Origin: an uncultured Alphaproteobacteria bacterium
GTDB lineage: Bacteria > Pseudomonadota > Alphaproteobacteria > HIMB59 > GCA-002718135
Reading direction: 5' to 3'
Length of the DNA: 64,000 nt
NCBI GenBank assembly: GCA_902577425.1
Contig: CACGZD010000001.1
Coordinates: forward strand, 510,414-574,413
Of this stretch, positions 51,646 to 64,000 are shown one piece after another. Below the pieces are notes generated by a model that saw only the letters and a program-made list of their open reading frames with translations, made no database searches and was not told where the DNA came from. The position numbers were made by a program, and so were the translations under genes. How positions within the stretch are numbered: position 1 is the stretch's first letter; every line of letters starts with the position of its first letter.

Positions 51646-52170
51646 ATGAATTTTGACAATTATGATTTTTTAGATACCTCTAAATTTGCTGGAAAAATTA
51701 TTCTTACATCTTTCCCTGGTTTAATCGAAAATACGCGTTTTGATATTTCATTTTTTTTAAAAGAGTTAAAAATATTTAAGGATAATAATTGTTCTTCAAT
51801 TACATCTTTTGTAGAAGATAGTGAGTTTGAAAAAATCTGTGATAAAAAAAACTTCGTTGAACAAATCTATCATAATAAGTTAAAGTGGTACCATCTACCT
51901 ATTAAAGATTTAGGTGCTCCTAATACTGAATTTAAATTTAAGTGGGAAACAACAAAAGTTTTATTAAAAAATGAATTGATCGAAGGCAAAAATATAGTTT
52001 TGCATTGTCGTGGAGGAAAAGGACGGGCAGGAACAGTTGCCGCATTATTATTAATTGATTTTGGAGTTAAAAAAGAAGAGGCTATTCAGCTCGTACGATC
52101 AAGAAGAAAAGGTGCTATTGAAACAAAAGAACAAGAAGAATTTATTTTTTCTTATAGACCTGTAGCTTAG
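51646..52170 (+). CDS. CX5R cysteine phosphatase (CDKN3/dual-specificity-like)
   Basis: HLPIKD acid loop, HCRGGKGRAG P-loop, GAIETKEQ. Confidence 0.88.
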   Translation: MNFDNYDFLDTSKFAGKIILTSFPGLIENTRFDISFFLKELKIFKDNNCSSITSFVEDSEFEKICDKKNFVEQIYHNKLKWYHLPIKDLGAPNTEFKFKWETTKVLLKNELIEGKNIVLHCRGGKGRAGTVAALLLIDFGVKKEEAIQLVRSRRKGAIETKEQEEFIFSYRPVA

Positions 52171-53219
52171 TAATTTACGGTTAAATTAAAAATATTTTGT
52201 AACACAAATAAAATTATAAAAGATATTAATGCTGCAAGGATTGGCAACAAAACCCAACCTATAGAAATTTTCCTTGCAATTGTCCATTGAACCTCTTTTC
52301 CACCTTTTAATAATCCTATACCAATTACACCACCCACGACTGCTTGAGAGCTTGATACTGGAACAAGAGGAATTGAGGGTAAATTAATTGACTGAAGAAA
52401 ATTACTAATACCTTGAGAAGCAAATAAAAATAAAACGATAGAATGAGCTAGTACAACGATAAAAGCGGCTACAGGGGACATTTTTAATAAATCATTTCCA
52501 ACAGTAAACATTACTTTTTTAGAATAAGTAAAAACACCAACTGCTATAGCAATACCACCTAATAGAAAAAGTTGCTCTTTGGACGAGAAATTAAAATCAT
52601 TTAAAATATTAATATCAGTAAAAGGTGAGATAGGGACAAAAACCCCCATTACATTAGCAATGTTATTAGCTCCTAGACTGTACGCTCCAAAAGCACCAGC
52701 TAATAAAAGAGCCGTTCTCGTATATGCGTCTAATCGCAGAATATGTAATTTTGCTTTTTGTAGAAAATTTTTTGTTATTACAAAAAAAAGCATTGAAAGC
52801 AAACCAGCAATAATAGGACATAAAACCCAAGTACCTAAAATTGTAATTAAAACTTGAATATTGGTTGAAGATCCAGTGTACAAGTTCCATCCTATAATAG
52901 CGCCAACAATTGCCTGCGTTGTTGAAACAGGAAGACCAGATTTTGTCATTATATATACTGAGAGCCCAGCAGCAATACATGCAGCAAAAGCTCCAGGCAA
53001 TGCATTGATTGATCCGAGCTTACCCAGTGTTTCGGTTGTTCCAGATCCACTAATAATAGCTCCTAGAATAACAAAGATACTACAAACAATTGCAGCAGTT
53101 TTAAATTGTACCATGCGCGTGCCAACCGCAGTTCCAAAAACATTAGCTGCATCATTGGCTCCTAAAGACCATCCTAGAAATAATCCTCCTAAGAGAAAAA
53201 TAATAATTGTTAATTCCAT
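52167..53219 (-). CDS. PiT family inorganic phosphate transporter
   Basis: GANDAANVFG and GANNIAN signatures, PVSTTQ, PVSSSQ. Confidence 0.92.
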   Translation of the reverse strand: MELTIIIFLLGGLFLGWSLGANDAANVFGTAVGTRMVQFKTAAIVCSIFVILGAIISGSGTTETLGKLGSINALPGAFAACIAAGLSVYIMTKSGLPVSTTQAIVGAIIGWNLYTGSSTNIQVLITILGTWVLCPIIAGLLSMLFFVITKNFLQKAKLHILRLDAYTRTALLLAGAFGAYSLGANNIANVMGVFVPISPFTDINILNDFNFSSKEQLFLLGGIAIAVGVFTYSKKVMFTVGNDLLKMSPVAAFIVVLAHSIVLFLFASQGISNFLQSINLPSIPLVPVSSSQAVVGGVIGIGLLKGGKEVQWTIARKISIGWVLLPILAALISFIILFVLQNIFNLTVNY

Positions 53220-53226
53220 AAATTAA

Positions 53227-53889
53227 TTAAACTGATCTTTTGATAGCGTAGATCTGAATTTCATCTGAAATATCTTCTGCTTGATCACAAATACGATCAA
53301 TTTTTTCAACAAAATAACGTAGATGCATTTTTTGATCCAAAGAAAGATTAGAATCAAAAATTTTTCTCGCCAAAGAACTAAATTTTATATCAGATTCTTT
53401 TTCATAAAATGTTACTTTGTGTGCATTGTCTCTAACAGATTTAATATCTCTAAAAAACGATCTTACTGTTAAACATAGTGCCTCTACACAATTTACTACA
53501 GTCTCTGTTAAATCAATTAAATCGTCATGAAACTCTTTTGGAAAATTTGGTTTTTGAATAGAGAAATGATAACAATTACCTTGATACATTCCAATAACTT
53601 CATCAAGATGTTCAAGAACTCTTAATACATCACTTCGAGCATCGGGAATTAATGTTTCTTCATATAAGGTGTGCTCCACTTCTTTGGTTATTTTATCAGC
53701 CTTACTTTCCATTAATTTAACTTGTTCGACCATTTCATCAAATTTGCCATTGGCAGAACTAGATAAATATGTTGGAATAATAGACTTAAATACCAAGCCT
53801 ACTTCAGAGAGAATATCAACAAATTCGTCTATTTCTCTCTCTAATTTTTTGGTTTCACCAAATAAAGATGTACTTTTTAATCCAAACAT
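53227..53889 (-). CDS. DUF47 (PhoU-like) PiT accessory protein
   Basis: ESKADKI, YEKESD, DQAEDISD; directly upstream of PiT. Confidence 0.9.
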   Translation of the reverse strand: MFGLKSTSLFGETKKLEREIDEFVDILSEVGLVFKSIIPTYLSSSANGKFDEMVEQVKLMESKADKITKEVEHTLYEETLIPDARSDVLRVLEHLDEVIGMYQGNCYHFSIQKPNFPKEFHDDLIDLTETVVNCVEALCLTVRSFFRDIKSVRDNAHKVTFYEKESDIKFSSLARKIFDSNLSLDQKMHLRYFVEKIDRICDQAEDISDEIQIYAIKRSV

Positions 53890-53928: not shown

Positions 53929-53946
53929 GTTACATTTTTGTTACAA
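53929..53946 (-). promoter_or_regulatory. Pho box upstream of DUF47-PiT
   Basis: Minus strand TTGTAAC-AAAA-ATGTAAC, 11-bp periodic direct repeat. Confidence 0.7.
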
Positions 53947-54019: not shown

Positions 54020-54247
54020 ATGAATTATGTATCGATGAACCAATTAAAATGGCTAAGTACTGGATTAGTATTAGCAGGAATTTTATTAACTAATTTAAAT
54101 TATTATCCATTAAATATTTTTACTCATGGTCTTGGCGCCATAGGATGGGCTATTGCTGGTTATATTGCCAAAGATAGAGCTTTAATGACAAATTTTGGAT
54201 TTCAAATTCCTCTATTTGCGATTGGATATTTTTACTATTTTACTTAA
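54020..54247 (+). CDS. Small membrane protein (DUF6552-like)
   Basis: GGAG RBS; KWLSTGLVL, YPLNIF, KDRALM; two to three TM segments. Confidence 0.7.
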   Translation: MNYVSMNQLKWLSTGLVLAGILLTNLNYYPLNIFTHGLGAIGWAIAGYIAKDRALMTNFGFQIPLFAIGYFYYFT

Positions 54248-54250
54248 TAG

Positions 54251-54673
54251 ATGAAAAAAGTTTTATTTATGTGTGTTGCTAATTCAGCTAGAAGCCAAAT
54301 GGCCGAAGGTATAGCAAAAAGCATTTATCTCGATTTTAAAATTGAAAGTGCTGGTTCAAAACCAACAAAATTAAATCCTATTGCAGTTAAAGTTATGAAT
54401 GAAATTGGAATTGATATAAGTAACAATTTTTCTAAAGATATTAATAGTTTAAATAAAAAATTTATTGATGAATTAGATTATGTAATAACTTTGTGCAAAG
54501 AAGAAGTTTGTCCAATTATTATAACGAATGCTAAAAAAATTCACCTACCTTTTCTTGATCCTGCTATAGATAATTTACCTGAAAAAGAGTTGATTAAAAA
54601 TTTTAGAGATATACGTAATCAAATAAAGAAAAAAATTATTGAATTAAAAACTATATTTGAAGTATCTTTTTAG
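54251..54673 (+). CDS. arsC: Arsenate reductase, LMW-PTP/thioredoxin type
   Basis: CVANSARSQMAEG, SAGS, TLC..VCP, DPA. Confidence 0.88.
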   Translation: MKKVLFMCVANSARSQMAEGIAKSIYLDFKIESAGSKPTKLNPIAVKVMNEIGIDISNNFSKDINSLNKKFIDELDYVITLCKEEVCPIIITNAKKIHLPFLDPAIDNLPEKELIKNFRDIRNQIKKKIIELKTIFEVSF

Positions 54674-54736: not shown

Positions 54737-55393
54737 CTATTTAATTAATATTTTTCCTAAATAAGTTGCTATGATTGAGCCAATTATCTGAGCTAATATA
54801 AATAACAATATGCTACCTGGATCTATACCAGTAAAAGTATTGGTAAACATTCTGCCTATAGTAACAGCTGGATTAGCAAAACTAGTAGATGAAGTAAACC
54901 AATAACCTGCAGTAATAAAAAGAGCAACGGCTATAGGTAAGTTTTGTTTATTTTGTTTACCAACTAATATAATAGTTAAAATTAAACCAAAAGTAGCAAC
55001 TATCTCTGAAAAAAAAGTATAAATCCCAAATCTGTTATTTGTTGATAATTCATATATTGGATATTCAAAATACCAATTTGCAGTGAAGCATCCTAATATA
55101 GCACCTATAATATGAGTCAAAATGAATAATAAAACTATTTTTAATTCTATTTTTTTTTGAATAAGATCGCTGAGTAGAACTACAGGATTAAAATATGCAC
55201 CTGAAATATTTATAAACATTGATATTAATACATATAATATAGCACCTGTAGCCAAAGCATTTGCTAATAAAGTTATTGCTAAATTTCCATTTGATAAGTT
55301 TTGACCCATAATTCCACTTCCCACAATGGTTAAAACAAGAAAATAAGAGCCAATAAATTCAGATATCAATTTTTGAAATAAAGATTTTTGCAT
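54737..55393 (-). CDS. MIP channel, AqpS-like
   Basis: SEFIGS, SGAYFNPVV, WFTSSTSFANPAVT. Confidence 0.85.
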   Translation of the reverse strand: MQKSLFQKLISEFIGSYFLVLTIVGSGIMGQNLSNGNLAITLLANALATGAILYVLISMFINISGAYFNPVVLLSDLIQKKIELKIVLLFILTHIIGAILGCFTANWYFEYPIYELSTNNRFGIYTFFSEIVATFGLILTIILVGKQNKQNLPIAVALFITAGYWFTSSTSFANPAVTIGRMFTNTFTGIDPGSILLFILAQIIGSIIATYLGKILIK

Positions 55394-55447
55394 TAGAATA
55401 AGATTTTTGTAATGCTAATATATTTTTTTTATTAAATTTTTATTTCA

Positions 55448-55465
55448 ATGTAAAAAAAATGTAAT
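55448..55465 (+). promoter_or_regulatory. Pho box upstream of SET-phoR
   Basis: ATGTAAA-AAAA-ATGTAAT; TGTAA repeated at 11 bp like the other boxes. Confidence 0.55.
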
Positions 55466-55526
55466 ATTAGGGTTATGGCTATTAAAATCCTTGATAAAGG
55501 TATAAATATAATTAAAAAAAACTCTT

Positions 55527-56024
55527 ATGAAAAAATTATGGTTCAAAAAAAAATCTTCTCTTCATGGATCGGGACTATTCGCTCTAAGTAATGTTAAAAA
55601 GGGTGAACAAGTAATTGAATATATAGGTGATAAAGTAACTAAAAAAGAAGGTGATAAAAGAGCCGATAAACAAATAAAAAAAGCTGAAAAAAATAAAAAA
55701 AATGGAATGGTCTATGTTTTTGAACTCAATAAAAAATATGACATTGATGGGGGGGTAGCTCGAAATTATGCACGTTTTATCAATCACTCCTGTGATCCAA
55801 ATTGTGAAGTAGAAATAACCAATAATCATATTTGGATATCATCGATTAAAAAAATTAAAAAAGGAGCAGAATTAACATATAATTACGGCTATCCCTTTGA
55901 TAGTGATTTTGAAGATCATATTTGTAAATGTGGATCTAAAAAATGTGTAGGGTATATTTTAAGTGACGATGATTGGCCCAAGCTAAAAAAATATGAAAAA
56001 AAACATAAAAAGGGCTCTAGATAA
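55527..56024 (+). CDS. SET-domain protein-lysine methyltransferase with post-SET
   Basis: HGSGLFA, EYIG, RFINHSCDPNC, ELTYNY, CKCGSKKC. Confidence 0.93.
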   Translation: MKKLWFKKKSSLHGSGLFALSNVKKGEQVIEYIGDKVTKKEGDKRADKQIKKAEKNKKNGMVYVFELNKKYDIDGGVARNYARFINHSCDPNCEVEITNNHIWISSIKKIKKGAELTYNYGYPFDSDFEDHICKCGSKKCVGYILSDDDWPKLKKYEKKHKKGSR

Positions 56025-57030
56025 AGTACCCCTTATAACTATAGCTATCAGTGTTGATAGAAATATAACTTATTATAATAACTTTGCTAAGCAAAAATTT
56101 CTTTTTATTGAAGAAGGAAGAGATATTAATGCTGTTGTTAGATCAATGGAATTAAACAGTTTTATTGATAGGGCTTTTAGAGAAAAAAAAGATTTTAAAG
56201 TAGAGTTCCAACCTTCTAATTATGAAGATTGGTATTTTATCGCCGACCTTGTTTTTTTTTCTGAAAGCGAAGGTTCAGATAAAGAGCTCATTGTTATTCT
56301 AACTGATCAAACAATGCTTTATAACTATGAAAAAATGCGAACTGATTTTGTTGCTAATGTCAGTCATGAATTGCGCACACCTCTCTCATCAATAGTTGGT
56401 TATATTGAAACTATTAAAAATGATATTAATCTAGATAAAATAACCACAAACAAATTTTTAGATATTATGGAGGATCAAGCTTGGCGTATGACAAGATTAG
56501 TCGAAGATTTATTGTTGTTAAGCAAATATGAGGCAGGAGATAAGCCTCTAGAATTAAAAGAAACAGAGATTGTAAACATTCTTCAAAAAGCAATAGATAA
56601 TTTAAATAAAAAAATTGAAGATAAAAAATTAAAAGTAAATTTAAATGATCATTTTACTAAAAAATTGATTTCTCTTAACAGTGATTCTATCATTCAAGTA
56701 TTTATAAATATTATAGATAACGCAATTAAGTATTCAGATGAGGGAAGTGAGATAAACATCGTTCTAAAACAGGCTATCCTAGATGATAATACTTATGTTC
56801 AAGTTCAAATTAAAGATCAAGGCGAGGGAATCTCCAATGAACATCTTAATCGCTTAACAGAAAGATTTTATAGAATTGATAAAAACCGATCTAGGGACTT
56901 AGGTGGTACAGGACTAGGTTTATCTATCGTAAAACATATTATAAACCGCCATAATGGCAAGTTTACAATTGAGAGTGAGATTAATCAGGGAAGTACTTTT
57001 ACCGTTTATTTACCTTTTGAATTTAATTAA
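55993..57030 (+). CDS. phoR: Phosphate regulon sensor kinase lacking N-terminal TM helices
   Basis: PAS-like start, DFVANVSHELRTPL H-box, NAIKYS, DQGEG, RFYR, GGTGLGL. Confidence 0.9.
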   Translation: MKKNIKRALDKVPLITIAISVDRNITYYNNFAKQKFLFIEEGRDINAVVRSMELNSFIDRAFREKKDFKVEFQPSNYEDWYFIADLVFFSESEGSDKELIVILTDQTMLYNYEKMRTDFVANVSHELRTPLSSIVGYIETIKNDINLDKITTNKFLDIMEDQAWRMTRLVEDLLLLSKYEAGDKPLELKETEIVNILQKAIDNLNKKIEDKKLKVNLNDHFTKKLISLNSDSIIQVFINIIDNAIKYSDEGSEINIVLKQAILDDNTYVQVQIKDQGEGISNEHLNRLTERFYRIDKNRSRDLGGTGLGLSIVKHIINRHNGKFTIESEINQGSTFTVYLPFEFN

Positions 57031-57042
57031 TAAAAAACAAAT

Positions 57043-57060
57043 CTTTAATATTTCTGTAAT
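57043..57060 (+). promoter_or_regulatory. Pho box upstream of pstS
   Basis: CTTTAAT-ATTT-CTGTAAT. Confidence 0.65.
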
Positions 57061-57105: not shown

Positions 57106-58101
57106 ATGAAAAAATTTGTTCTTAGTTTAATTATTGTAACTTTTGCAATTACAAGCTCAGTTTCTGCAAGAGATTATATATCTATCGTTGGATCTTCTAC
57201 TGTTTATCCATTTGCAACACTAGTTGCTGAAAAAATGGCTTCTGAAGGAATGAAAGCACCAGTTATTGAAAGCACAGGTTCTGGGGGAGGACATAAATTA
57301 TTTTGTGCTGGTGTTGGAGTTGAACATCCTGATATTACAAATTCATCAAGAGCACAAAAAGATAAAGAGTTTAAATTATGCCAAGATGGCGGTGTAATGG
57401 ATATCGTAGAAGTACGTGTTGGTAATGACGGTATTGCATTTGCTTACTCTTCTGATTATGAGTGGAAGTACACAAATGGTGCAGCTATGAAAGGTGGAAT
57501 AGATCTTTCAAAGGAAGAAATTTGGCAAGCTATGGCCAGAGACAATAAAGATGCACCAAGCACTTGGTTTGAAATTGATAAGCGATTACCAAAAGTAGAA
57601 ATTTCTATTATGGCACCCCCTCCTTCTTCTGGAACAAGAGATGCGTTTGATTCACTCGTAATGAAAAAAGGTTGTGTCAAAGATATGCTGGTTGCTGATG
57701 GCGACTGTAAAGCTTACCGTGAAGATGGCCATGTTATTGAGGGTGGTGAAAATGATGAACTTTATGTTGAACACATTACAAAAGAGCAAGGTGCATTCGG
57801 TATTTTCGGATATAGTTTCTTAGCAAATAATGAAGATAAAATTTCTGCTTCTAAAATTAATGGGGTAGAAATCTCTCAAGAAGGTATTCAAGATTATTCA
57901 TATCCTATTGCAAGACCTTTATTCTTTTATATCAAAAAAGCGCATGTAGGTGTAATCCCTGGGTTAATGGATTATGTTAATGAGTTTGTAAGTGAGGAAG
58001 CAACAGAAGGTTATTTATTGGATGCGGGGTTGGTCGAGTTAAGTCCAGCTGATAGAAGCAAAGTTCTTGATGACATTGCTAATTTGACAAATTACAAATA
58101 A
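57106..58101 (+). CDS. pstS: Phosphate ABC substrate-binding protein
   Basis: Signal peptide, GSSTVYPF, ESTGSGGG, PPSSGTRDAF, YPIARPLFFY. Confidence 0.95.
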   Translation: MKKFVLSLIIVTFAITSSVSARDYISIVGSSTVYPFATLVAEKMASEGMKAPVIESTGSGGGHKLFCAGVGVEHPDITNSSRAQKDKEFKLCQDGGVMDIVEVRVGNDGIAFAYSSDYEWKYTNGAAMKGGIDLSKEEIWQAMARDNKDAPSTWFEIDKRLPKVEISIMAPPPSSGTRDAFDSLVMKKGCVKDMLVADGDCKAYREDGHVIEGGENDELYVEHITKEQGAFGIFGYSFLANNEDKISASKINGVEISQEGIQDYSYPIARPLFFYIKKAHVGVIPGLMDYVNEFVSEEATEGYLLDAGLVELSPADRSKVLDDIANLTNYK

Positions 58102-58117
58102 CCTTAATCTAATTGAA

Positions 58118-58147
58118 TAAAAAGAGGGGATTTCCCCCTCTTTTTTT
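58118..58147 (+). terminator. Intrinsic terminator after pstS
   Basis: A-run, GAGGGG-ATTTC-CCCCTC, T7. Confidence 0.85.
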
Positions 58148-58150
58148 ATT

Positions 58151-58179
58151 GACTCATATCATTGTAATATAACTGTAAC
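58151..58179 (+). promoter_or_regulatory. Pho box(es) upstream of pstC
   Basis: GACTCAT-ATCA-TTGTAAT-ATAA-CTGTAAC, 11-bp periodicity. Confidence 0.8.
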
Positions 58180-58208
58180 AAAAGTTTAGTATTCTTTCTA
58201 AATATCTA

Positions 58209-59582
58209 ATGTTTTATTGGTCTCTAATTATTATAGTTCTTGGTATTTATTCCGCATATATTTTTGGAAAATCACGAATTAAATCAAACGCTAAGCAGTT
58301 AGATATCAAAACAGTTTCTCTTCCTACATATTATGCGCAATACATGATGGTCTGGTGTTTGCTACCTGCTCTTATTGTTTATTTTGGGTGGATCATTTTT
58401 GAAAATCAAATAATTCAAAATCTTGTCCTTGCAAACTTTGATTTTGAATTAAACCCCACTCTTAATCCTGGGCTATTAATTGCAGAGATAAAAAATGTTG
58501 CTTCAAACATTTCTTTTGCTGAGGGAAAAGCAATAGAAATATTAAATGCTGCGGAACATTACTCTTCACTTAAATTTACAAGTACAGTTGCTTTTTATTT
58601 AAGTGTTTTAATTTTTATGATTTTAGGAGTTATGATTGCCTCTAGAAAATTGCAACCCACTTTTCGTGCACAGAAATCAATTGAAAATTATATAAAATAT
58701 TTTCTATTTTTTTGTTCTACAGTAGCAGTTTTAACAACTGTTGGAATTGTCTTCTCATTATTGTTTGAAAGTTTACGTTTTTTTTCTGAAGTATCTATTT
58801 TTGAATTCTTATTTGGAACTAAGTGGTATCCTTATATTCCTATACGAGAAGGTCAGTCAGGATCCCAAGGATCATTTGGAGCTATTCCAATATTTGCTGG
58901 AACATTTTTGATTATGATTGTTGCAATGAGTGTTGCTACACCTATTGGATTATTTACAGCAATTTATTTATCTGAATATGCTTCACCAAAAATAAGAAGT
59001 ATAGTGAAGCCTCTTTTAGAAATTTTAGCTGGCGTCCCTACTATAGTTTATGGTTTCTTTGCTTTTGTTACTGTTGCCCCATTTGTCAAAACATTCGGCC
59101 AGTCCTTGGGAATAGATGCTTCGCCTACAAGTGCTCTTGCCGCAGGCTTGGTGATGGGCATTATGATTATACCTTTTATATCTTCGTTATCAGATGATGT
59201 AATAAATTCTGTCCCTCAAAGTTTGAGAGAAGGGTCTTTAGGTGTTGGCGCTAATAAAGCAGAAACAATTAAAAAGGTCATTCTACCAGCTGCCCTTCCT
59301 GGTATTGTGGGTGCCTTTTTACTAGGTGTTTCAAGGGCTATTGGAGAAACTATGATTGTCGTTGTGGCTGCAGGTACTGCGCCCAATTTAACTGCAAATC
59401 CTTTTGAAAATGTTACCACTGTTACAGTACAAATTGTTATTGCTTTAATTGGTGATCAAGAATTTGATGACCCACGAACCTTATCAGCTTTTGCATTAGG
59501 ATTAGTTTTATTTGTTATTACATTAATTCTTAATATTTTTGCTTTAAGAATTGTTAAAAAATATAGAGAACGATATGAGTAA
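58209..59582 (+). CDS. pstC: Phosphate ABC permease
   Basis: EILAGVPTIVYG, SRAIGETM, N-terminal alpha-type extension. Confidence 0.95.
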   Translation: MFYWSLIIIVLGIYSAYIFGKSRIKSNAKQLDIKTVSLPTYYAQYMMVWCLLPALIVYFGWIIFENQIIQNLVLANFDFELNPTLNPGLLIAEIKNVASNISFAEGKAIEILNAAEHYSSLKFTSTVAFYLSVLIFMILGVMIASRKLQPTFRAQKSIENYIKYFLFFCSTVAVLTTVGIVFSLLFESLRFFSEVSIFEFLFGTKWYPYIPIREGQSGSQGSFGAIPIFAGTFLIMIVAMSVATPIGLFTAIYLSEYASPKIRSIVKPLLEILAGVPTIVYGFFAFVTVAPFVKTFGQSLGIDASPTSALAAGLVMGIMIIPFISSLSDDVINSVPQSLREGSLGVGANKAETIKKVILPAALPGIVGAFLLGVSRAIGETMIVVVAAGTAPNLTANPFENVTTVTVQIVIALIGDQEFDDPRTLSAFALGLVLFVITLILNIFALRIVKKYRERYE

Positions 59583-60855
59583 TCAATATTCACACGAAAA
59601 AATTATTCAATTAAGAAAAAAAAGAAGTGCAGCTGATCGCCGATTCAAAACTTATGGCTTAATTGCTACCTTAATGGGAATGGCGATTTTATTTTTTTTA
59701 TTATTTACTATTTTCTCTAAAGGATATTCTTCCTTTCAAAAATCTGTAATTGAATTAGAGGTGTCGTATGATCAAGAAACTTTAAAAATTACTTCTGACT
59801 CAACCTATGAAGAACAAGTAAAAGCAAAATTTTTTAGAGTGAAAAAAAATGCCATTGCCAAAGCACTACCTGACTTAAGTAAAAAAGATATTAAGTTGAT
59901 AAAAAAGATGTTTTCAATAAATGTTGATAAAGAAATTAAGGAGTATTTTTTAAATAATCCAAATATTTTAAATACTACTCAGAAGATTTTTGTTACTGCT
60001 CATAGTGATGTTGATCAACTGTTAAAAGGAAATGCTAGACGTAATATTGAAGAGAAAAAAAGAAAATTAAATGATAGGCAATTAGAATTTTTTGATGAAT
60101 TTGTTTCAAGCGGCAGATTAAAAACTAAATTTAATAATTTCTTTTTTAAGAATGCTGATTCAAGACATCCTGAATTGGCTGGTATAGCTGGATCTTTTGT
60201 AGGATCATTATTTACTTTGATGACTGTTTTTTTATTAGCGTTTCCAATTGGTATTGGCGCATCAATATATTTAGAAGAATTTGCACCAAAAAATAAGTTT
60301 ACAGAGTTAATTGAAGTTAATATTGCCAACTTAGCAGCTGTTCCTTCTATAGTATTTGGTTTGTTAGGACTGGGTATTTTGTTAAATGTTTTTGGATTTC
60401 CAAGAAGTACACCTTTGGTTGGAGGAACTGTTTTAGCACTAATGACGCTACCCACGATAATTATAGCTTGTCGTGCCTCTCTTAAAGCCGTCCCACCATC
60501 TATAAAAGAAGGTGCTTTAGCGATGGGGGCATCAAAAATGCAAGCGGTATTTCATCATCAGGTACCATTAGCATTACCAGGCACTTTAACTGGTACTATT
60601 ATTGGTTTAGCGCAAGCTTTAGGGGAAACAGCTCCTTTGATTATGATAGGAATGATTGCTTTTATCCCAAATATTCCAACCGGTTTCACAGAGCCATCTG
60701 CAGCTTTACCTGTACAAATCTATCTTTGGGTAGAAAGTTCAGAGAGAGGGTTTCAAGAAAAAACTGCTGCAGCAATAATGATGATATTAATATTTTTATT
60801 TTTAATGAATGCTTTAGCAGTATTCTTAAGAAGTAAGTTTGAGAGAAAATGGTAA
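59575..60855 (+). CDS. pstA: Phosphate ABC permease
   Basis: [18 protein letters not shown]; start at MSNQ overlapping pstC stop. Confidence 0.95.
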
Positions 60856-60856
60856 T

Positions 60857-61618
60857 ATGAAAAATATAAAAATATCTTCAAAAAATGTAAATGTTCATTA
60901 TGGTGCAAAACAAGCACTTCATTCAGTGTCATTAAATATTAATGAAAATGAAGTTACTTCACTAATTGGACCTTCTGGTTGTGGAAAATCTACTTTTCTA
61001 AGATGTATCAATAGAATGAATGATTTAATTGATATTTGTAAAGTTGATGGATCTATTACAGTAGATAATGAGGAAATTATTTCGGATGAAGTTGATGTAG
61101 TAAGTCTTCGTTCAAAAATTGGAATGGTTTTTCAAAAACCAAACCCTTTTCCTAAATCTATTTTTGATAATGTTGCTTATGGGCCAACTATTCATGGTAT
61201 AGCTGAAAGCAAAACAGACTTAGAAGAAATAGTTCATTCATCATTAAAGAGAGCAGGACTTTTAAAAGAGGTAAAGGATCGTTTGCATGAACCTGGCACA
61301 AGCTTATCTGGTGGACAACAACAACGCTTATGTATTGCACGAGCAATAGCTGTTAATCCAGATATTATTTTAATGGATGAACCATGTTCAGCATTAGATC
61401 CAATTGCAACAGCAATAATTGAAGAATTAATTGATGAGCTTAAAGCAAATTACACTATTGTGATAGTGACTCACTCTATGCAGCAAGCAGCTAGAGTATC
61501 ACAACGAACTGGGTTTTTTCATTTAGGGGAACTAATTGAAACAGGTGATACACAAAAAATTTTTACTAATCCTGATAATGAAAAAACACAGGGTTATATA
61601 ACGGGAAGGTTTGGATAA
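60857..61618 (+). CDS. pstB: Phosphate ABC ATPase
   Basis: [32 protein letters not shown]. Confidence 0.97.
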
Positions 61619-62335
61619 ATGGAACAAGATACACATATAGTTAAATCCTATGATGAGGAGATGAAAGAAATTAATAACAGCATCTTAGACATAGGAAGTT
61701 TAGTGGAAAATCAATTAAAAGAAGCTTTGGGTGCCTTAAAAAATCAAGATACAGAATTAGCTGACAAAGTAATTCAAGCAGATAATTTAATTGATGAAAA
61801 ATTCAGGCAACTTGATCAAAAACTAGTTCTTATATTGGGAAAAAGACAACCAATGGCAACAGATTTAAGAACAATTTTCTCCGCAATTAAAATGAACAAA
61901 GATCTTGAAAGATTAGGAGATCATTCAACAAATATTGCAAAACGTACTGCTATGATTGAACTTGTTTTACCAGAAAAGCCTGTACGAGATATATTAAGAA
62001 TGGGAGAGCATGTTCGAGTTATGATAGCAAAAGTTATTCAATCATTTGTAAACTTTTCTGCAGAGGAAGCAAAAATTGTTTGGGAAATGGATGAAGAAAT
62101 TGATGATGAATATCTTGGTATTCTTCGACAACTTTTAACTTATATGATGGAAGATCCTAAAAGAATATCAGCATGCACAAATTTACTTTATATGGTTAAG
62201 GATCTAGAGAGGGCTGGAGATTATGTTCAAAATATTGCCGAAGACATATATTATGCAGTATCAGGAGAGCCTTTGTATAATGATGGACCAGATAGGGAGT
62301 GGGAAGCAATCAAACCTCTTAAAAAAAAGAAATAA
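61619..62335 (+). CDS. phoU: Phosphate signalling protein
   Basis: RQPMATDLR, DLERLGDH, LERAGDY..NIAE. Confidence 0.95.
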   Translation: MEQDTHIVKSYDEEMKEINNSILDIGSLVENQLKEALGALKNQDTELADKVIQADNLIDEKFRQLDQKLVLILGKRQPMATDLRTIFSAIKMNKDLERLGDHSTNIAKRTAMIELVLPEKPVRDILRMGEHVRVMIAKVIQSFVNFSAEEAKIVWEMDEEIDDEYLGILRQLLTYMMEDPKRISACTNLLYMVKDLERAGDYVQNIAEDIYYAVSGEPLYNDGPDREWEAIKPLKKKK

Positions 62336-62353
62336 CTGTAATCAAATTGTAAT
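62336..62353 (+). promoter_or_regulatory. Pho box upstream of phoB
   Basis: CTGTAAT-CAAA-TTGTAAT immediately after the phoU stop. Confidence 0.8.
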
Positions 62354-62376
62354 AAAAATTTATTAAAAAATAAACA

Positions 62377-63060
62377 ATGAAATTAAAAACTTTAATTGTA
62401 GAAGATGAGAGTTCACTACTTGAATTATTAAAATTTAATTTTATTAAAGATGGATTTAAAGTTGATACAGCAACTGATGGTGAAATGGCTCTTGAAAAAA
62501 TTTTGAATAAAGCACCTGATCTTTTAATTTTAGATTGGATGTTACCAAAATTGTCTGGAATTGAACTTTGTAGACGTATTAGAAAAAATAAAGAACTAAA
62601 AAATCTTCCAATTATAATGTTAACTGCAAGGGGTGAAGAAGAAGATAGACTTCGAGGTTTAGAAACTGGAGCAGATGATTATGTCACTAAACCTTTTTCT
62701 GTAAATGAATTAATGGCAAGAGTTAAAGCAGTATTAAGAAGAATTAGACCGATGTTCACTGAAGAAGTTTTGTCATATAAGGGGATCGTAGTTGACCTCG
62801 TATCTCATAAGGTAACAAGAGACAGCGAAACACTCCATCTTGGTCCCACAGAATTTAATCTATTAGTTTTTTTTATGGAAAATATCGGCAGAGTTTTTTC
62901 AAGAGAACAACTTTTGAATCATGTGTGGAAAGATGAAGCATATGTGGAACCTCGCACTGTTGATGTACACATAAGAAGATTAAGAAAATCTATCAATAAT
63001 GACGTAAAAGAAGATTTTATAAGAACAGTAAGAAGTGCTGGCTACTGTTTTGGCTCCTAA
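62377..63060 (+). CDS. phoB: Phosphate regulon response regulator
   Basis: LDWMLP, MLTARGEE, DYVTKPF, RTVDVHIRRLRK, RTVRSAGY. Confidence 0.96.
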   Translation: MKLKTLIVEDESSLLELLKFNFIKDGFKVDTATDGEMALEKILNKAPDLLILDWMLPKLSGIELCRRIRKNKELKNLPIIMLTARGEEEDRLRGLETGADDYVTKPFSVNELMARVKAVLRRIRPMFTEEVLSYKGIVVDLVSHKVTRDSETLHLGPTEFNLLVFFMENIGRVFSREQLLNHVWKDEAYVEPRTVDVHIRRLRKSINNDVKEDFIRTVRSAGYCFGS

Positions 63061-63114: not shown

Positions 63115-64000
63115 ATGCAGGGATTTTTCAGATCTTTTTTTACTGTTAGTTTTTATACTTTTCTAAGTCGTATATTGGGTTTTGTCAGAGACATATTAAT
63201 AGCGAGATTCCTTGGATCCACCGTAACATCTGATGCCTTCTTTGTTGCCTTTAGAATTCCCAATTTCTTTAGACGTGTTTTAGCAGAAGGTGCCTATAGC
63301 GCCGCACTAATCCCAGTTTTTTCAGGCGTTGTTATTGATTCCAAAAATGATCATGAAGCTGCAGACTTTGTGGAAAATACAATGTCATTGTTACTATTTG
63401 TTACGGTAATTTTGACCTTCATTTTCTTTTTTGGCATGCCGTATATTATTCAAATTTTAGCTCCTGGATTTTCTGCAAACAAAGAAGCATTTGATTTAGC
63501 TGTTCATTTTGGAAAAATTATTTTTCCGTATTTAATTTTTATTTCCCTCGTTGCCCATTTTGCGTCTATTAACAATGTTCACGGAAAATTTGTAGCAGGT
63601 GCTTTTGCTCCCGCTATTTTAAATATTAGTCTTATTCTTTCTCTTTTTATTTTAACCCCTCAACTCTCTACAGCTGGTCATGCTTTATCGTATGGTGTTT
63701 TGATTGGAGGGTTATTCCAATTTATTTATTTATATAAAGCGGTATTAAAATTTTATCGTCCTCGCATTCGTTTCCCACACTTTGATGAAAAATTAAAAAA
63801 ATTTTTACGTTTATTTTTTCCAGGGTTAATTGGTTCAGGTGTCATACAATTAAATATTGTTATTGGAACAATTATAGCATCCTTTCTTCCAATAGGAGCT
63901 ATTAGTCATATTTATTATGCAGACCGGTTAAATCAATTACCACTAGCCATTTTTGGTATTGCCATGGGTATTGTTCTTTTACCAAGTTTATCAAAGGCTA
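63115..64000 (+). CDS. murJ: Lipid II flippase (partial, runs off window; missing from ORF track)
   Basis: Hand translation MQGFFRSFFTVSFYTFLSRILGFVRDILIARFLG..DAFFVAFRIPNFFRR..AEGA. Confidence 0.93.
   Translation, partial: MQGFFRSFFTVSFYTFLSRILGFVRDILIARFLGSTVTSDAFFVAFRIPNFFRRVLAEGAYSAALIPVFSGVVIDSKNDHEAADFVENTMSLLLFVTVILTFIFFFGMPYIIQILAPGFSANKEAFDLAVHFGKIIFPYLIFISLVAHFASINNVHGKFVAGAFAPAILNISLILSLFILTPQLSTAGHALSYGVLIGGLFQFIYLYKAVLKFYRPRIRFPHFDEKLKKFLRLFFPGLIGSGVIQLNIVIGTIIASFLPIGAISHIYYADRLNQLPLAIFGIAMGIVLLPSLSKA

Follow-up and report, generated by a model that had tools for sequence, protein, structure and literature searches.

A SET-domain methyltransferase gene that overlaps phoR in a HIMB59-order alphaproteobacterium is a probable member of the Pho regulon

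Results

The SET-phoR locus

We analysed a 64,000-nucleotide stretch (the window; 30.8% GC) of contig CACGZD010000001.1 from an uncultured alphaproteobacterium, in which a gene for a SET-domain lysine methyltransferase overlaps phoR, a gene for a phosphate-type sensor kinase. The SET gene (55527-56024, + strand) encodes a SET and post-SET protein of 165 amino acids. Its last 32 nt (55993-56024) are shared, on the same strand, with phoR (55993-57030, + strand), whose product is a soluble PAS-HisKA-HATPase histidine kinase of 345 amino acids recognized by its HisKA and HATPase_c domains. A motif scan placed a Pho box upstream of SET (55449-55465, + strand). Behind phoR, and also on the + strand, follow pstS for the phosphate-binding protein (57106-58101; PBP_like_2, E 1.5e-33), pstC, pstA and pstB (58209-61618; open reading frames with homologues matched in related loci), phoU (61619-62335; PhoU domain, E 9.3e-47) and phoB (62377-63060; TIGR02154 PhoB, 329.6 bits against a cut-off of 296.2). 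After phoB, murJ begins at 63115.

The nearest named genome is the single-amplified genome AG-414-E06 (locus L001), to which the SET protein is 99%, PhoR 97% and PstS 99% identical. L001 is assigned to the GTDB order HIMB59, family GCA-002718135; loci L002-L006 belong to the genus AG-337-I02 of the same family, and loci L028-L035 to the family HIMB59 (supplement of PMC10734472).

The SET protein

The Pfam SET domain (PF00856) was matched over its full profile (positions 1-105 of 105) with 86.9 bits against a cut-off of 22.4 (E 1.5e-24). The best solved relative was the SET domain of MLL1/KMT2A (E 1.5e-24), to which residues 9-143 were aligned; the motifs HGSG (13-16; HGxG), NHSCDPNC (86-93; NHSCxPNC), ELTYNY (115-120) and CxCGxxxC all aligned with their counterparts in MLL1. 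Among 67 homologues from several phyla, the catalytic and S-adenosylmethionine (AdoMet) residues G16, N86, H87, C89, E115 and Y120 were invariant, as were the four cysteines of the post-SET zinc motif (C89, C133, C135 and C140, that is, CxCx4C plus the Cys of NHSC).

An AlphaFold (AF2) model computed from the 67-sequence alignment had a predicted local distance difference test score (pLDDT) of 90.9; a shallow alignment of 13 sequences gave a pLDDT of only 35, and that model was not used. The top Foldseek matches of the model were the SET domains of MLL1, NSD1, NSD2 and ASH1L (probability 1.00, template modelling (TM) scores of 0.63-0.72). An insert and the C-terminal helix of the protein are rich in Lys. 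A preliminary description of this DNA, made from its letters, had claimed an intact SET domain with a post-SET zinc motif, and the Pfam match, the MLL1 alignment, the 67 homologues and the model bear this out. As the profile is matched in full, the catalytic and zinc residues are invariant and the modelled fold agrees, the gene is apparently a real and functional SET and post-SET methyltransferase gene, and it is highly likely that its product is an active methyltransferase.

The overlap with phoR

The phoR gene is read in the +1 frame relative to SET. Its ATG is embedded in the tail codons of SET (AAA TAT GAA AAA), and the shared stretch contains a run of eight A residues (A8). The 32-nt overlap, which had been put forward in the preliminary description, was confirmed by the coordinates of the open reading frames and by the starts of homologues: PhoR relatives of 342-346 amino acids all have their start at one and the same residue, whether or not their genes overlap SET. 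The same overlap is present in L157 and in L002-L006, where the run is A9.

PhoR was placed in the PhoR/PnpS family by best match, with scores below all curated equivalog cut-offs (best NCBIfam match PnpS, 304.6 bits against 400; TIGR02966 PhoR, 296.2 against 334.2; NF008235, 199.4 against 390); it has the PAS-HisKA-HATPase core and is linked to pstSCAB-phoU-phoB. The protein has no N-terminal membrane anchor; its sequence opens with the PAS region and lacks the about 120 N-terminal residues that come before it in PhoR proteins typical of alphaproteobacteria. This short form is common to all relatives of 342-346 amino acids and, since it also occurs in copies not next to SET, the absence of the anchor is a feature of the clade. 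Loss of the anchor through placement behind SET was considered and ruled out, as the relatives that are not next to SET share the start residue.

Transcription across the junction

RNA-derived contigs from five metatranscriptome runs, belonging to two studies, span the SET/phoR junction. Those covering 55834-56110 and 55876-56050 had no mismatch, and further junction contigs covered 55887-56178, 55887-56094 and 55952-56120. No terminator was found between SET and phoR. SET could hold a separate phoR promoter, although the promoter-like match within it (55855-55883) is of a kind no more frequent than chance would give. Because the contigs are unstranded, may include DNA and end at polymorphisms or homology breaks, they weakly support co-transcription; overall, we consider it likely that SET and phoR are co-transcribed. 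Contig ends were also considered as marks of a transcription start and were rejected in both places where they cluster: the left ends at 55397-55436 correspond to a homology break between island versions, and a C/T polymorphism (55886) falls among those at 55876-55887.

Pho-type repeats in the window

The repeat upstream of SET, TGTAAAAAAAATGTAAT (TGTAAA-N5-TGTAAT, 55449-55465), is in sense orientation toward SET and lies 61 nt before its ATG (62 nt had been given in the preliminary description). It conforms to the Pho-box pattern of two 7-bp direct repeats with a period of 11 bp. It has one mismatch to TGTAAT-N5-TGTAAT, which is shared with the spacers before pstS, pstC and phoB. The strict motif TGTAAW-N5-TGTAAW was matched twice in the window, by the SET box and at 62337 before phoB, against 0.13 matches expected. 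With up to one mismatch to TGTAAT-N5-TGTAAT, there were four matches in 64 kb (55449, 57044, 58163 and 62337), all on the + strand and all in the spacers before SET, pstS, pstC and phoB. In a simulation of five spacers of the same composition (486 nt in total, 19% GC), 0.027 matches were expected and four or more were obtained in none of 2000 runs. The Pho-type repeat previously noted upstream of SET is thus confirmed and forms part of a locus-wide motif.

A possible weak third half-site follows the SET box at 55471-55476, and a weaker opposite repeat (55431-55447, two mismatches) abuts it. The latter may serve the divergent gene, which in the window is that of a MIP channel. Both back-to-back repeats (55431-55465) are retained in the window (spacer 55394-55526) and in L001 (3879-4000), where the divergent gene is plcP, not MIP; going upstream, the two sequences cease to be homologous about 30 nt beyond the + strand box. 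An identical box stands at the same distance in L001, L104, L105 and L134, with different upstream genes; these sequences are near-identical, so that they add little independent support for the box. PhoB control of SET-phoR in this genome is reasonably probable.

Of the remaining boxes, that upstream of pstS (57044-57060, + strand) agrees perfectly with the motif in L001 and L157. The spacer between pstS and pstC (58102-58208) has a GC-rich hairpin with a T-run at about 58120-58148, followed by the pstC box (58163-58179, + strand); given this order, pstS may be terminated here and pstCAB re-initiated separately under PhoB control. The box upstream of phoB, TGTAATCAAATTGTAAT (62337-62353, + strand), is a perfect match that ends 23 nt before the phoB ATG (spacer 62336-62376), which leaves room for a -10 element and hardly any for a leader. 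At so short a distance, the phoB mRNA may be leaderless or nearly so.

SET neighbourhoods within the order HIMB59

Related loci (labelled L001 and onward) were surveyed by related-locus searches, searches for encoding contigs and tblastn. Adjacency of SET and phoR was not unique to this genome, which would have refuted the preliminary description by its own account. A co-oriented SET-phoR unit with the identical 32-nt overlap was conserved in L001-L006, L104, L105, L124, L126, L129-L132, L142, L152, L153 and L157-L160, across which SET was 77-100% and PhoR 60-98% identical. L157-L160 are labelled Pelagibacteraceae and were considered as a second order carrying the unit; this was rejected, as their SET gene and upstream spacer are of the L002-L006 type.

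Among close relatives (SET 65-96% identical), SET was constant and the downstream gene variable, with five arrangements. In arrangement A, SET is followed by phoR and the pst genes. In arrangement B (L087-L092), it is followed by a gene for a pstS-like binding protein, 48% identical to PstS of the window, which starts at the same ATG in the SET tail and has the same 32-nt overlap; in L156, the pstS-like gene is in turn followed by phoR. Arrangement C, the commonest with about 35 loci, has a convergent gene for a membrane protein of 319 amino acids and then murJ. In arrangement D (L106, L114 and L118), the 319-amino-acid gene is followed by a different phoR (47% identical) and phoB, and in arrangement E, SET stands directly before murJ. 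The tail with the embedded ATG (YEKKHKK or HEKKRKK) was present in only about 5 of the 102 nearest SET clusters. Exchange of cassettes behind a fixed gene, by reuse of a start codon in the tail of that gene, is how we read these arrangements.

Some further features of these loci were observed. The binding protein of arrangement B (L087:1545-2555) has a signal peptide, and its gene is not followed by pstCAB. The 319-amino-acid membrane protein (L081:623-1582, - strand, and about 35 other loci) has faint similarity to PHO4 (E 1.2e-05, below the cut-off); in the window, the phoR-to-phoB cassette occupies the place between SET and murJ that is usually taken by its gene. On one metagenome contig (L121:1-3921), phoR is preceded by two tandem copies of arsC-MIP-SET, and only the 3' end of the second SET gives a match. 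Either the duplication is real or the assembly is faulty at the variable junction.

Upstream of SET, the usual neighbours are PHO4 with PhoU_div, both divergent, and DUF6552. The genes for PHO4 (a Pit-like phosphate transporter) and its PhoU_div/DUF47 partner, identified by profile matches and the locus survey, are at 52167-53889 on the - strand of the window and are the most constant neighbours of SET in the family. A Pho box with two mismatches (TGTAAC-N5-TGTAAC, 53929-53945, - strand) points to this PhoU_div-PHO4 operon and is kept in L085, L087 and L088. The gene for the small membrane protein DUF6552 (54020-54247, + strand), which is directly before SET in most relatives, is separated from it in the window by an LMWP-type arsC (54251-54673) and the MIP channel gene (54737-55393, - strand); all three were identified as open reading frames with profile matches. 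The plcP-agt pair is divergent from SET in L001-L006, L104, L105 and L129-L132; it is absent throughout the 64 kb of the window, where the MIP channel gene is in its place. Clusters of plcP-agt with Pho boxes are a known lipid-remodelling module of phosphate starvation (PMC4796936). In the family HIMB59, SET is followed by dgkA, with arsC, phoB, phoU and pstBAC nearby on the opposite strand. Every HIMB59-order arrangement found had SET amid phosphate-stress genes (PHO4-PhoU_div, plcP-agt, dgkA, pst or phoB).

Pho boxes before SET genes without phoR

In a sister lineage (L143, L144, L145, L147 and L155; SET 65-70% identical), SET is preceded by boxes that are perfect at 12 of 12 positions (CTGTAAT-N4-TGTAAT). 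They share the strand of SET and precede its ATG by 56-65 nt; 8-10 nt beyond them comes a hexamer, TATATT or TAAAAT, and the predicted geometry is that of a classical PhoB promoter. The columns of the box are invariant and the flanks vary. The chance of one perfect match in the 109-nt spacer, at its composition, is estimated at about 2e-4. The gene behind SET in L155 is convergent, which makes SET monocistronic there. Because perfect boxes precede SET without phoR in this lineage, SET itself, and not just phoR, appears to be a regulated gene.

Homologues outside the order

The survey took in 80 loci from species-representative genomes. Outside the order, homologues in Pelagibacteraceae (43-49% identical) were found in a dapE/argB-truA-fmt-def context, and those of Verrucomicrobiota, Gemmatimonadota and DPANN archaea had no phosphate genes nearby. 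In some of the Pelagibacteraceae loci (L053:3072-4001, and also L049, L050, L063, L066 and L070), only 3 nt separate the end of a histone-deacetylase-family gene (Pfam Hist_deacetyl, E 1e-82) from the SET homologue downstream; genes for a lysine deacylase and a lysine methyltransferase are here paired in a free-living bacterium.

SET proteins from genomes labelled Omnitrophota or Planctomycetales were 50-57% identical and thus closer than the Pelagibacteraceae copies. Here the gene is part of the string QueH-NUDIX-(aminotransferase)-SET-(CrcB)-(LMWPc)-regulator-kinase, with gaps of 0-25 nt (L011, L015, L099, L102/L103 and the P0205 locus). The regulators of this Omnitrophota/Planctomycetota clade had PhoB as their highest-scoring profile (244-268 bits against a cut-off of 296), and the kinases had PnpS (394-422 bits against a cut-off of 400) and then PhoR. 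A phosphate-selective porin is encoded 4.6 kb downstream in L099, and in L018, SET lies 2.3 kb before genes for a porin, pstS and pstC. Since the gene string is inherited, the adjacency amounts to one or two independent events besides that of the HIMB59 order; chance expectation for such an adjacency is below 1% per lineage, which is suggestive and no statistical proof. A link between SET and the Pho system beyond the HIMB59 lineage is plausible on these grounds. An LMWP-type arsenate-reductase-like gene adjoins phoB in the HIMB59-family islands (L021/L028) and likewise in the Omnitrophota-type SET locus of P0205, which also carries an ArsP permease, a recurrent linkage of arsenic and phosphate genes.

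Discussion

Comparison with known systems

In Escherichia coli, the paradigm of phosphate signalling, phoBR is an autoregulated operon with a Pho box. As in that operon, a PhoB box before the sensor gene would give positive feedback at the locus described here. Unlike in E. coli, phoR of the window is split from phoB by the whole pst-phoU operon, is preceded and overlapped by an unrelated enzyme gene, and encodes a protein without a membrane anchor. Protein methylation that tunes a two-component regulator has a precedent in Salmonella, where PhoP is reportedly methylated by CheR; that case involves another enzyme family and another system (PhoPQ, magnesium) and has no gene linkage.

The SET protein shares with MLL1/KMT2A (PDB 2W5Z, 7W67), NSD1 and ASH1L the fold (TM about 0.7, 37% identity), the AdoMet and catalytic motifs and the CxCx4C zinc cluster. 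Unlike the MLL1-type enzymes, it is a stand-alone bacterial protein of 165 amino acids without flanking AWS/pre-SET or WIN regions or WRAD partners; both its SET-I insert and its tail are rich in Lys, and its host has no histones. To our knowledge, the roles of SET proteins in free-living bacteria have been open since their discovery, all cases studied being host-directed effectors or an archaeal chromatin modifier. Characterised prokaryotic SET proteins include Go1-SET of Methanosarcina mazei, which methylates MC1-alpha, NUE/cpnSET of Chlamydia, RomA/LegAS4 of Legionella and BaSET of Bacillus anthracis (PMC3980110). These are small and similar in size to the protein of the window; they are secreted effectors aimed at host histones or modifiers of archaeal chromatin proteins, and none is tied to the Pho regulon or to a two-component operon.

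The locus itself has been drawn before. Flexible phosphate genomic islands (fGIp) of the HIMB59 order were described in a study from which the genomes of L001-L006 come, and the legend to its Figure 2C lists 'SET domain, methyltransferase' together with PstSCAB, PhoR/PhoB, LpxH, RfaG, DGK, GlpF and WzB (PMC10734472). These islands are the same locus as that of the window; the study covers HIMB59 only and treats neither the function and regulation of SET nor its overlap and Pho boxes. A literature search for a link between SET and the Pho regulon returned nothing besides this paper. The enzyme family and the presence of the gene in HIMB59 islands are therefore already known; new are the indications of PhoB control, a conserved overlap in which an embedded start is reused, the variable partner gene and the recurrence beside phoB-phoR in distant phyla.

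A probable Pho-regulated enzyme at the island edge

The explanation that we favour, though by no means firmly, is that SET is a Pho-regulated gene at the edge of the island with a general role in phosphate starvation. It would encode a catalytically intact MLL/Trithorax-like enzyme, fixed at the border of a variable phosphate island of the HIMB59 order, and in the island version of the window the phoR-pstSCAB-phoU-phoB cassette has come to sit directly behind it. The start of phoR within the Lys-rich tail of SET would lead to co-transcription and probably to translational coupling. The PhoB-type box most likely makes SET-phoR inducible by phosphorylated PhoB (PhoB~P) under phosphate starvation, and SET-phoR is a probable PhoB-autoregulated operon in this genome, in which the sensor would be autoregulated and SET induced alongside. 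We suggest that SET is a core enzyme at the point of cassette exchange, that several island versions put it under PhoB control, and that the embedded start codon in its tail would couple it to the phosphate gene that follows, phoR here and a pstS paralogue elsewhere. The enzyme most likely methylates a cytoplasmic protein of the phosphate-starvation response, and its target is probably not specific to PhoR. As the downstream gene varies and a box precedes SET without phoR, SET is probably a member of the Pho regulon rather than a dedicated partner of PhoR. The earlier portrayal of SET-phoR as a Pho-boxed unit holds up in the conserved co-oriented gene pair, the RNA contigs that span its junction and the PhoB-type motif found across the locus.

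Several observations weigh against this explanation. At the SET site of the window, a gap of 14-17 nt lies between the second repeat and the best -10-like hexamers, compared with about 10 nt in the canonical arrangement. No + strand Pho box (two mismatches or fewer) was found before SET in L002-L006 and L129-L132, which have only - strand repeats that possibly serve plcP; the AG-337-I02 loci (L002-L006, L157) have the SET-phoR overlap and no + strand box that could be recognised. A box is also missing from most loci in which DUF6552 is upstream, and a conserved sigma-70-like region (CTTGTAT...TCTAAT) stands there instead. The sister-lineage boxes lie in a 109-nt spacer shared with the divergent PhoU_div gene and could serve either side; their orientation and -10 spacing favour SET over PhoU_div. 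The RNA contigs, as noted, carry no strand information and possibly include DNA. Version A islands have SET and pst without PhoR-PhoB (PMC10734472). Farther afield, homologues in Pelagibacteraceae, Verrucomicrobiota and DPANN archaea stand in unrelated contexts, the Omnitrophota adjacency belongs to a long inherited string (QueH-NUDIX-SET-...), and L100/L101, with the same string, have no two-component genes. As SET persists without phoR behind it, it could be a housekeeping enzyme.

Alternative explanations

If it is, SET may owe its position to hitch-hiking: a housekeeping gene would flank a hot spot for phosphate cassettes, the box would autoregulate phoR, and SET would be a passenger without a phosphate role. 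The constancy of SET beside a changing downstream gene, most commonly the convergent 319-amino-acid gene with murJ, would be expected of such a passenger, as would the rarity of the embedded-ATG tail and the many homologues in unrelated contexts; in addition, the methyltransferase is counted in the core of one island version, version H (PMC10734472). These points are opposed by the perfect and conserved boxes, with canonical -10 spacing, before a monocistronic SET gene that has no phoR, by the phosphate genes that lie on the other side of SET as well in nearly all arrangements, and by the independent adjacency to phoB-phoR in other phyla. We regard hitch-hiking as unlikely, yet as an explanation to be taken seriously. 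Acting on a lysine of PhoR, PhoB or PhoU and thereby tuning phosphate signalling, as the preliminary description proposed, is a more doubtful role for SET, with PstB as a further candidate target. The overlap is conserved down to 60% PhoR identity, SET stands directly before phoB-phoR in Omnitrophota and Planctomycetota, and it adjoins the end of pst-phoU-phoB in the family HIMB59, all of which would suit such a role; however, most close relatives keep SET without an adjacent phoR or phoB, it is kept in islands reported to be without PhoR-PhoB (PMC10734472), and no partner is common to all contexts. That proposal was not supported by the present analysis, in which the variable gene downstream of SET in its closest relatives (SET 73-96% identical; phoR, a pstS-like gene or an unrelated convergent gene), the rare tail and the islands without PhoR-PhoB all weaken a dedicated pairing. 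Its wider form, in which two or more distant groups (HIMB59-order alphaproteobacteria and Omnitrophota/Planctomycetota) share a small SET protein as a conserved accessory of phosphate signalling that is induced by PhoB and methylates a lysine of a Pho-pathway protein (PhoB, PhoR, PhoU or PstB) as post-translational feedback, seems to us just as improbable.

The frames of SET and phoR, which differ by +1, and the A8 run within the overlap (A9 in L002-L006) raise the further idea that loss of one A by transcriptional or translational slippage yields a SET::PhoR fusion and so tethers the enzyme to the kinase. This is very improbable: none of the RNA-derived contigs that cross the run has an indel there, although contigs hide rare variants; a SET domain was present in none of the 120 nearest PhoR clusters; and the length of the run differs between lineages, AAA Lys codons being expected at 31% GC. 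The recurrent neighbours plcP, agt and dgkA suggested a role of SET in membrane remodelling, with, for example, an amino-lipid head group or a lipid-remodelling enzyme as its target, to which we give a very slight chance.

Significance

An intact SET protein of an abundant, streamlined ocean lineage is tied to phosphate starvation by a gene overlap, a promoter motif and a neighbourhood that recurs in two distant groups. Phosphate starvation is thus suggested as the condition under which to seek the substrate of a SET protein of a free-living bacterium. If the target were a Pho-pathway protein, a bacterial signalling system that is among the best studied would gain a new level of regulation; if it were another protein, it would still be the first physiological substrate of a SET protein from a free-living bacterium.

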